From Prolixibacteraceae bacterium (GTDB lineage Bacteria > Bacteroidota > Bacteroidia > Bacteroidales > Prolixibacteraceae): DNA of 64,000 bases. A model generated the notes under the pieces. The model did not search any database and was not told where the DNA came from. It saw only the letters and a list, made by a program, of their open reading frames with translations. Both the position numbers and the translations under genes were made by a program. Positions within the stretch are counted from its first letter, which is position 1; every line of letters begins with the position of its first letter. This document shows positions 59,787 through 60,185 of the stretch, piece by piece. The stretch is from the NCBI GenBank assembly GCA_031421065.1, contig JANONW010000288.1, forward strand, positions 2,993 through 66,992, in the 5' to 3' direction.

Positions 59787-60185
59787 ATGTTGTTTTTTGC
59801 CGATAAAATTGTATCCGAAGGTTTAACTTTTGACGATGTGTTGTTAATACCCTCTTATTCTGAAGTTTTACCGCGCGAGGTTGATTTATCTTCCTGGTTC
59901 ACCCGTAACATCAGGCTGAATACGCCTGTTGTGACAGCTGCCATGGATACGGTGCCCGAAGGGATCGTTGCCAGAGTTCCATACAAAGGTTCGCTATACG
60001 AAGTGCTCCACCAGCTAACAGGCGGAATTCGCTCTGGAATGGGATATTGCGGCGCCAAAAATATAGAAATGCTTCAACATGCTAAATTTACCCGGATAAC
60101 CAATTCAGGAATTCAGGAAAGCCACCCCCACGATGTAAGTATTACCAGTGAATCACCCAATTACAGTTCACGAGGATGGCAATAA
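59787..60185 (+). pseudogene. guaB: IMP dehydrogenase with a large in-frame internal deletion (132 aa)
   Basis: N-terminal [11 protein letters not shown]...AAMDTV fused to C-terminal [12 protein letters not shown]...GMGYCGA...ESHPHDV; TIM-barrel core, CBS domains and catalytic Cys loop absent. Confidence 0.85.

Follow-up and report, generated by a model that had tools for sequence, protein, structure and literature searches.

The window analysed here, a stretch of 64,000 nucleotides from a Prolixibacteraceae bacterium (genome G000 in our comparisons), carries an open reading frame of 132 amino acids on the plus strand at 59787-60185 that unites the two ends of a GuaB protein, the canonical IMP dehydrogenase (IMPDH). 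It is preceded by a promoter block and a divergent recQ gene, and followed by a run of PPIase/SurA-like genes. The features of this region are listed below in window coordinates.

57756-59660, minus strand: recQ, the divergent upstream neighbour
59724-59786, plus strand: promoter and leader block containing a −7 box of the Bacteroidota type (TAGTTTTG, 59748-59755); the block is kept by all genomes of the genus that were examined, the guaB-less ones included
59787-60185, plus strand: remnant guaB open reading frame of 132 codons and a stop, in which GuaB residues 1-56 run in frame into the last 76
59787-59950, plus strand: 5' retained segment, covering the N-terminal strand region and barrel strand β1 up to ...AAMDT (TIGR01302 positions 1-47)
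59951-59953, plus strand: deletion junction with GGT microhomology, where 1,083 nt are missing
59954-60185, plus strand: 3' retained segment, running from where the flap ends, via the last helix and the C-terminal tail, to the native stop codon (Pfam positions 285-345)
60266-62215, plus strand: PPIase of 649 aa with rotamase domains, the first of three co-oriented PPIase/SurA-like genes
62212-63066, plus strand: second of the three downstream genes (284 aa), overlapping the stop of the PPIase gene
63073-63999, plus strand: SurA-like PPIase, open at the window end

On the far side of recQ, an adjoining minus-strand open reading frame (57212-57724) resembles Vsr, the very-short-patch repair endonuclease.

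A guaB frame without its catalytic core

The original prediction, made from the letters of the window, described 56 N-terminal residues joined directly to about 76 C-terminal ones in a frame devoid of stops and frameshifts. Both points are confirmed: the frame is open over its 132 amino acids with zero internal stops, and it is matched in two pieces by Pfam, by TIGR01302 and by IMPDH structures. PF00478 recognizes it over two stretches with 126 bits (E value of 2e-36; cut-off of 25.6), the C-terminal one aligning residues 56-115 with profile positions 285-345 of 345. The N-terminal part (residues 12-58) corresponds to TIGR01302 positions 1-47, and Pfam positions 1-47 were also matched by this part in the six-frame genome search. 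Alignments with PDB entries place residues 6-65 on IMPDH residues ∼11-70 and residues 55-127 on the last ∼74 residues. As a full-length match to the GuaB equivalog TIGR01302, the frame fails, with 90.6 bits for a cut-off of 481.5.

Compared with canonical GuaB (TIGR01302/PF00478; PDB 1VRD, 1ZFJ and 4MY1), the retained segments share 97-99 % protein identity with the orthologues of congeners and lie at the same genomic position, but the frame is without 361 of the 493 residues, including seven of the eight barrel strands. The deleted part comprises barrel strands 2-8, the CBS pair, the catalytic Cys loop and the Arg-Tyr dyad of the flap. In line with this, the Cys loop (G-x-G-x-G-S-I-C-x-T) is missing from the 132-aa sequence, whose sole cysteine is found in GMGYCGAK. 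The flap dyad (...KDRYFQ... upstream of LVPEG), present in orthologues, is absent from the frame since it belongs to the deleted segment, and the CBS (Bateman) pair, which falls within the 361 deleted codons, gives no Pfam match in the frame. Because these catalytic parts are deleted, the product cannot be an IMP dehydrogenase.

The junction carries the signature of a short-homology deletion

The junction was resolved by ungapped DNA comparison with the closest full-length orthologues, found at loci L007 (genome G009), L008 (G003) and L009 (G013). Relative to all three, exactly 1,083 nt (361 codons) are missing. The frame is colinear with them from the start to its base 167 and from the stop back to its base 165, with a nucleotide identity of 89-96 % on both flanks of the gap. 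The 5' retained segment is 94.5 % identical to L007 and L009 and 92.7 % to L008, and the 3' retained segment 94-96 % identical to L007 and L009 and 89 % to L008. The parental sites read ...GATACGGTAACCGA... and ...AAACTGGTKCCCGA...; the left one (GAT ACG GTA) and the right one (CTG GTK CCC) have in common a GGT located at window positions 59951-59953, in an imperfect similarity in which 8 of 13 positions around the breakpoint match. The Val codon common to the motifs MDTV and LVPEG, which had been proposed as the source of the microhomology, was thus right to within one base. As judged from these alignments, the junction is the signature of a single short-homology deletion, produced by slippage or illegitimate recombination.

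We consider it quite unlikely that the deletion arose in assembly or sequencing, or that it represents a minority allele, with a full-length guaB truly present in the organism and a contig that follows a chimeric or rare path. The genome is a MAG of 451 contigs with an estimated contamination of 4.5 %, and the deleted allele is recorded from a single contig. However, the homology at the junction amounts to 3 nt, which is far below any assembler k-mer, so that a collapse of repeats is unlikely from the way assemblers work. Besides, the junction is located inside an 87-kb contig that is continuous across it and shows no break, and the genome search revealed the central 361 codons of guaB on no contig of the bin.

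The junction is unique and defines no family of mini-IMPDHs

A degenerate DNA pattern for the AAMDTV/PEGI junction returned no match in a collection of one genome each for 185,579 species, and none in 241 million metagenome records. Protein-seeded locus searches of the genome and metagenome collections yielded ordinary full-length relatives only, none of them covering residues 1-132. Similarly, a search of 5.8 billion proteins with a length window of 73-231 aa, which is ideal for mini-IMPDHs, returned no protein sharing the junction but only fragments and five singleton IMPDHs with internal deletions. The 132-aa protein itself is recorded from one NCBI contig, and its protein cluster holds nothing besides itself and a 45-aa C-terminal fragment. 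The search for IMPDH-like proteins of about 130 aa with the same junction, suggested together with the initial description, therefore came out empty.

The five singletons (P0001, P0003, P0004, P0006 and P0068) are open reading frames of 166-222 aa on unrelated metagenome contigs, each with its own in-frame internal deletion linking N- to C-terminal parts. They resemble the window frame in the fusion of N- and C-terminal GuaB pieces and the loss of the catalytic core, but they differ from it in their junctions and stem from unrelated lineages, with no shared family. They may be real scars or assembly chimeras, and the possibility that some are artefacts lends a measure of plausibility to an artefact in the window as well. 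Since the window junction is unique in these collections and the five singletons all differ, there is no family of mini-IMPDHs. Literature searches on guaB pseudogenes, on Tritrichomonas foetus-type IMPDH in Bacteroidetes and on Lmo0132 retrieved nothing bearing on the case. A candidate for an intact allele of the same species (P0002, locus L018) was set aside, as it belongs to another species with ∼1 base in 20 differing in an alignment inspected by eye.

Repeated, independent losses of canonical guaB within the genus

We surveyed 50 genomes of the genus (Prolixibacteraceae-like MAGs) with the full-length GuaB of G009 as query. Full-length guaB (490-493 aa) is present in 44 of them, two of which have it split across contig ends, and the six guaB-less genomes are G000, G001, G040, G046, G047 and G053. 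In all 11 intact loci that were read, guaB lies directly upstream of the same PPIase gene. As these loci were read from 255 nt before guaB, the position of recQ is seen only at remnant loci: it is the upstream neighbour in G001, G046, G047 and G053 and is replaced in G040. At this last locus, its place is taken by a 238-aa minus-strand open reading frame that looks by eye like a REP-associated tyrosine (IS200-like) transposase.

The guaB-less congeners keep remnants of various lengths. Three species share a 63-codon in-frame scar made of ∼47 N-terminal and ∼11 C-terminal codons, at the following positions.

L026:1156-1344: 63-codon guaB scar of G001
L025:3554-3742, minus strand: 63-codon guaB scar of G053
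L027:3580-3768, minus strand: 63-codon guaB scar of G047

This scar is open and of equal length in the three species despite a dS of ∼0.4, and its 3' third is almost wholly rewritten in G047; that the frame stays open could be due to chance or to selection for an open leader frame. G046 displays an N-terminal stub of 81 codons, which includes residues 57-78, lost in G000, and whose end is not the native stop. All that G040 retains of the guaB coding sequence, next to an intact promoter block (L028:1330-1500), is the ATG and 3 further codons, a 4-codon frame located ∼120 nt upstream of the PPIase start.

In a maximum-likelihood tree based on 305 residues of the adjacent PPIase, G040, G053, G001 and G047 form one clade (support of 99/98), and G000 falls in a clade (99/96) with the intact G009, G003, G013 and G002, and also with G046. 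A deletion inherited by G000 and G046 from a common ancestor was discarded since G046 keeps the residues 57-78 that are deleted in G000, and one shared with the G001 clade was discarded since that clade is separate in the PPIase tree. As G000 and G046 retain mutually exclusive pieces and the nearest relatives of G000 are intact, the genus must have lost guaB on three or more independent occasions. Five congeners carry inherited deletions in this gene, which makes its loss in G000 biologically expected and again argues against an artefact. The genus thereby offers a natural decay series that goes from the intact gene to a fresh in-frame scar, then to decayed scars of 81 and 63 codons, and down to 4 codons.

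Apart from these losses, G005 exhibits beside its full guaB a second open frame of 349 aa (G005:C268:1031-2014) with 64 % identity to GuaB residues 5-332, which may represent an additional copy, diverged or truncated, or lie on a contaminant contig.

A second IMPDH and the purine pathway genes are present

When all 451 contigs of the genome were searched in six frames with PF00478, the matches were, besides the two remnant pieces, a 500-aa frame (contig C212), a 347-aa frame (C78) and a FabK-like protein. The 500-aa frame is positioned as follows.

G000:C212:12708-14144 (= L001:1474-2973), minus strand: IMPDH of the PRK07107/T. foetus type, 500 aa, on a contig other than that of the remnant

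This paralogue reaches 936 bits on NF005493 (PRK07107 IMP dehydrogenase; cut-off of 585) and aligns end to end with the IMPDH of T. foetus (PDB 1AK5) with 773 bits. The IGGGSIC catalytic loop and the Arg418-Tyr419 dyad (Q-R-Y-D) are conserved. Presumably, it is active as an IMPDH, given its close similarity to the characterized T. foetus enzyme. The two types belong to the same enzyme family, have the same fold and presumably catalyse the same reaction, with 37-38 % identity between canonical GuaB and the PRK07107-type paralogue.

The paralogue is found in all 50 genomes of the genus, where it is seen as matches of 36-38 % identity. The identity of the G000 copy to its orthologues is 98 % for G009, 97 % for G003 and G013, 96 % for G002 and 93 % for G046. 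Because these values track the species relationships at the guaB locus, the gene comes from this organism rather than from contamination of the bin. The search for a second IMPDH, guaC and salvage genes proposed along with the original prediction thus found all of them in the genome: in addition to the PRK07107-type IMPDH, it contains guaA (GMP synthase; 464 bits, cut-off of 339), guaC (GMP reductase; the 347-aa frame on C78, 630 bits) and hpt (hypoxanthine-guanine phosphoribosyltransferase; 152 bits, cut-off of 150).

Outside of the genus, two genomes of 99 % completeness belonging to other families of the order displayed only distant IMPDH-family matches of 36-37 % identity, a level equal to that of the PRK07107-type paralogue, and canonical guaB was not found in either of them. 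These two genomes fit, at the level of gene content, with the two IMPDH types being interchangeable in Bacteroidota.

As a side observation, only ∼20 of the 50 genomes surveyed encode guaC (∼347 aa). All five near-complete guaB-less ones are among them, a distribution that is confounded by phylogeny.

The retained codons show the dN/dS of intact genes

Across the 129 retained codons common to all orthologues, nine private changes set G000 apart from its close clade, 8 of them synonymous and 1 non-synonymous, and the probability of at most one non-synonymous change out of nine is 5e-5 under neutrality. The non-synonymous change is S2L, at a site that is invariant throughout the genus, even in decayed scars; a second private replacement, E130G, is found in the tail. 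Over the first 47 codons, dN/dS is 0.04 between G000 and G009, a value resting on only 9-10 private changes overall, compared with 0.00-0.04 among intact genes and 0.35-0.98 for the older, decaying remnants of congeners. As G000 behaves like intact genes, almost its whole branch was probably spent with guaB intact and selected, and the deletion is probably very recent.

Taken in isolation, the low dN/dS of the retained pieces would fit purifying selection on a mini-protein as well as recency. Selection on a mini-peptide is, however, contradicted by the fate that the equivalent remnants appear to have met in sister lineages. We therefore regard as very improbable the proposal that the frame encodes a retained functional mini-protein, in which the interface segments of IMPDH would regulate the remaining enzyme or act on it as a dominant-negative partner. 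The open frame with its intact promoter and start, the dN/dS of 0.04 over the retained codons and the contacts made by the terminal segments with neighbouring subunits in established IMPDH structures would all agree with such a role. Nevertheless, the junction was found nowhere else in the genomes, metagenomes and protein database searched, and the sister guaB-less lineages keep different and shorter pieces that are decaying (dN/dS of 0.35-0.98; four codons in G040). In addition, the one IMPDH that remains shares 37-38 % identity with canonical GuaB, so that the interfaces are unlikely to match, and one of the two private replacements, S2L, alters a genus-invariant residue. Single-sequence AlphaFold2 models are often poor; here, the model has a mean pLDDT of 39.8 and a pTM of 0.30 with no residue above 70, which is too poor for a fold search and constitutes weak evidence against a folded mini-protein. 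With its unique junction, the differing and decaying remnants of congeners and a mean pLDDT of about 40, the oligomer-interface regulator put forward at the outset is unsupported.

The promoter outlives the gene

The original prediction had further stated that the promoter box is intact and that the short frame heads a PPIase/surA run, and both statements hold. The promoter-like −7 box TAGTTTTG, which we take to match the Bacteroidota −7 consensus TAnnTTTG, and the start context correspond to those of intact orthologues, and the three co-oriented PPIase/SurA-like genes follow downstream. The promoter block is 99 % identical between G000 and G009 and can still be recognized as conserved in each guaB-less genome, even in G040, alongside decaying coding remnants. 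The PPIase gene comes after guaB or its remnant in every relative examined. A scan for sigma-70 promoters and terminators was uninformative for this Bacteroidota genome. From its conservation, the guaB promoter likely also drives the downstream PPIase/SurA genes. If it serves these genes as well, only deletions that spare it would persist; regulatory DNA shared with downstream genes would in this manner constrain deletions, as illustrated by a promoter that is conserved through the whole decay series.

The same observations raise the question of whether the remnant is selected as an open frame and not for its sequence, translation up to the vicinity of the PPIase gene avoiding premature termination (polarity). 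Two independent deletions, that of G000 and that of G001/G047/G053, preserve the reading frame down to the native guaB stop. In three species, the 63-codon frame stayed open with no change in length at a dS of ∼0.4 and with a heavily rewritten 3' part, and every guaB-less genome has a conserved promoter block. We nonetheless find this explanation unlikely, as G040 copes with a 4-codon frame ∼120 nt upstream of the PPIase start and the deletion of G046 ends elsewhere than at the native stop. Moreover, two in-frame outcomes out of three or four events are within chance (1/3 each), and annotation and searches favour the noticing of in-frame remnants. In a more elaborate form, the guaB promoter would be the operon promoter of essential periplasmic-chaperone (PPIase/SurA) genes, and guaB losses would be channelled so as to spare the promoter, the start codon and a leader that is open and translated, the 132-aa frame being the youngest "translated scar" maintained for non-polar expression. 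We attach a similarly low probability to this scenario; that the 132-aa peptide itself modulates the remaining IMPDH is less likely.

Discussion

The frame in the window is most likely canonical guaB after one recent and real deletion, a non-catalytic remnant whose loss of function is tolerated thanks to a second IMPDH, as the comparison of sequences within the genus indicates. Illegitimate recombination or slippage between two sites sharing a GGT would have removed 1,083 nt, once and recently. With its catalytic core gone, the product would be no enzyme. Since the deletion is in frame and leaves promoter and start untouched, a polypeptide of 132 aa is probably still made, most likely as an unstable by-product that itself has no function. 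The loss of guaB would be tolerated because the cell has a second complete IMPDH of the T. foetus/PRK07107 type, together with GMP synthase, GMP reductase and Hpt. Canonical guaB appears in this respect to be dispensable in the genus, where it was lost at least three separate times. The promoter and the 5' end survive every loss, likely since they drive the PPIase/SurA genes. Of the options formulated from the window, the one of a recent deletion tolerated through a second IMPDH or salvage is thus borne out by an intact PRK07107-type IMPDH, by guaA, guaC and hpt, by full-length genes in relatives and by a dN/dS of ∼0.04.

The locus has much in common with the deletion remnants of redundant bacterial genes: the deletion is clean with a 3-nt microhomology, intact orthologues occupy the locus in the nearest relatives, a predicted functional paralogue is present and older sister remnants are decaying. 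It differs from them in that the frame is still open, the promoter is intact and there is no sign yet of relaxed selection, which explains why gene callers annotate a 132-aa protein. The biology here is of a familiar kind, ordinary gene decay, and the modest added value of the case resides in the independent losses across the genus and in the conserved promoter.

On the practical side, the 132-aa "IMP dehydrogenase" record of this MAG should be relabelled as a non-functional remnant, and it is the PRK07107/T. foetus-type paralogue that should stand for the IMPDH step in metabolic reconstructions. Finally, the occurrence of a T. foetus-type IMPDH across the genus may be of interest for tracing the bacterial source of the parabasalid gene.
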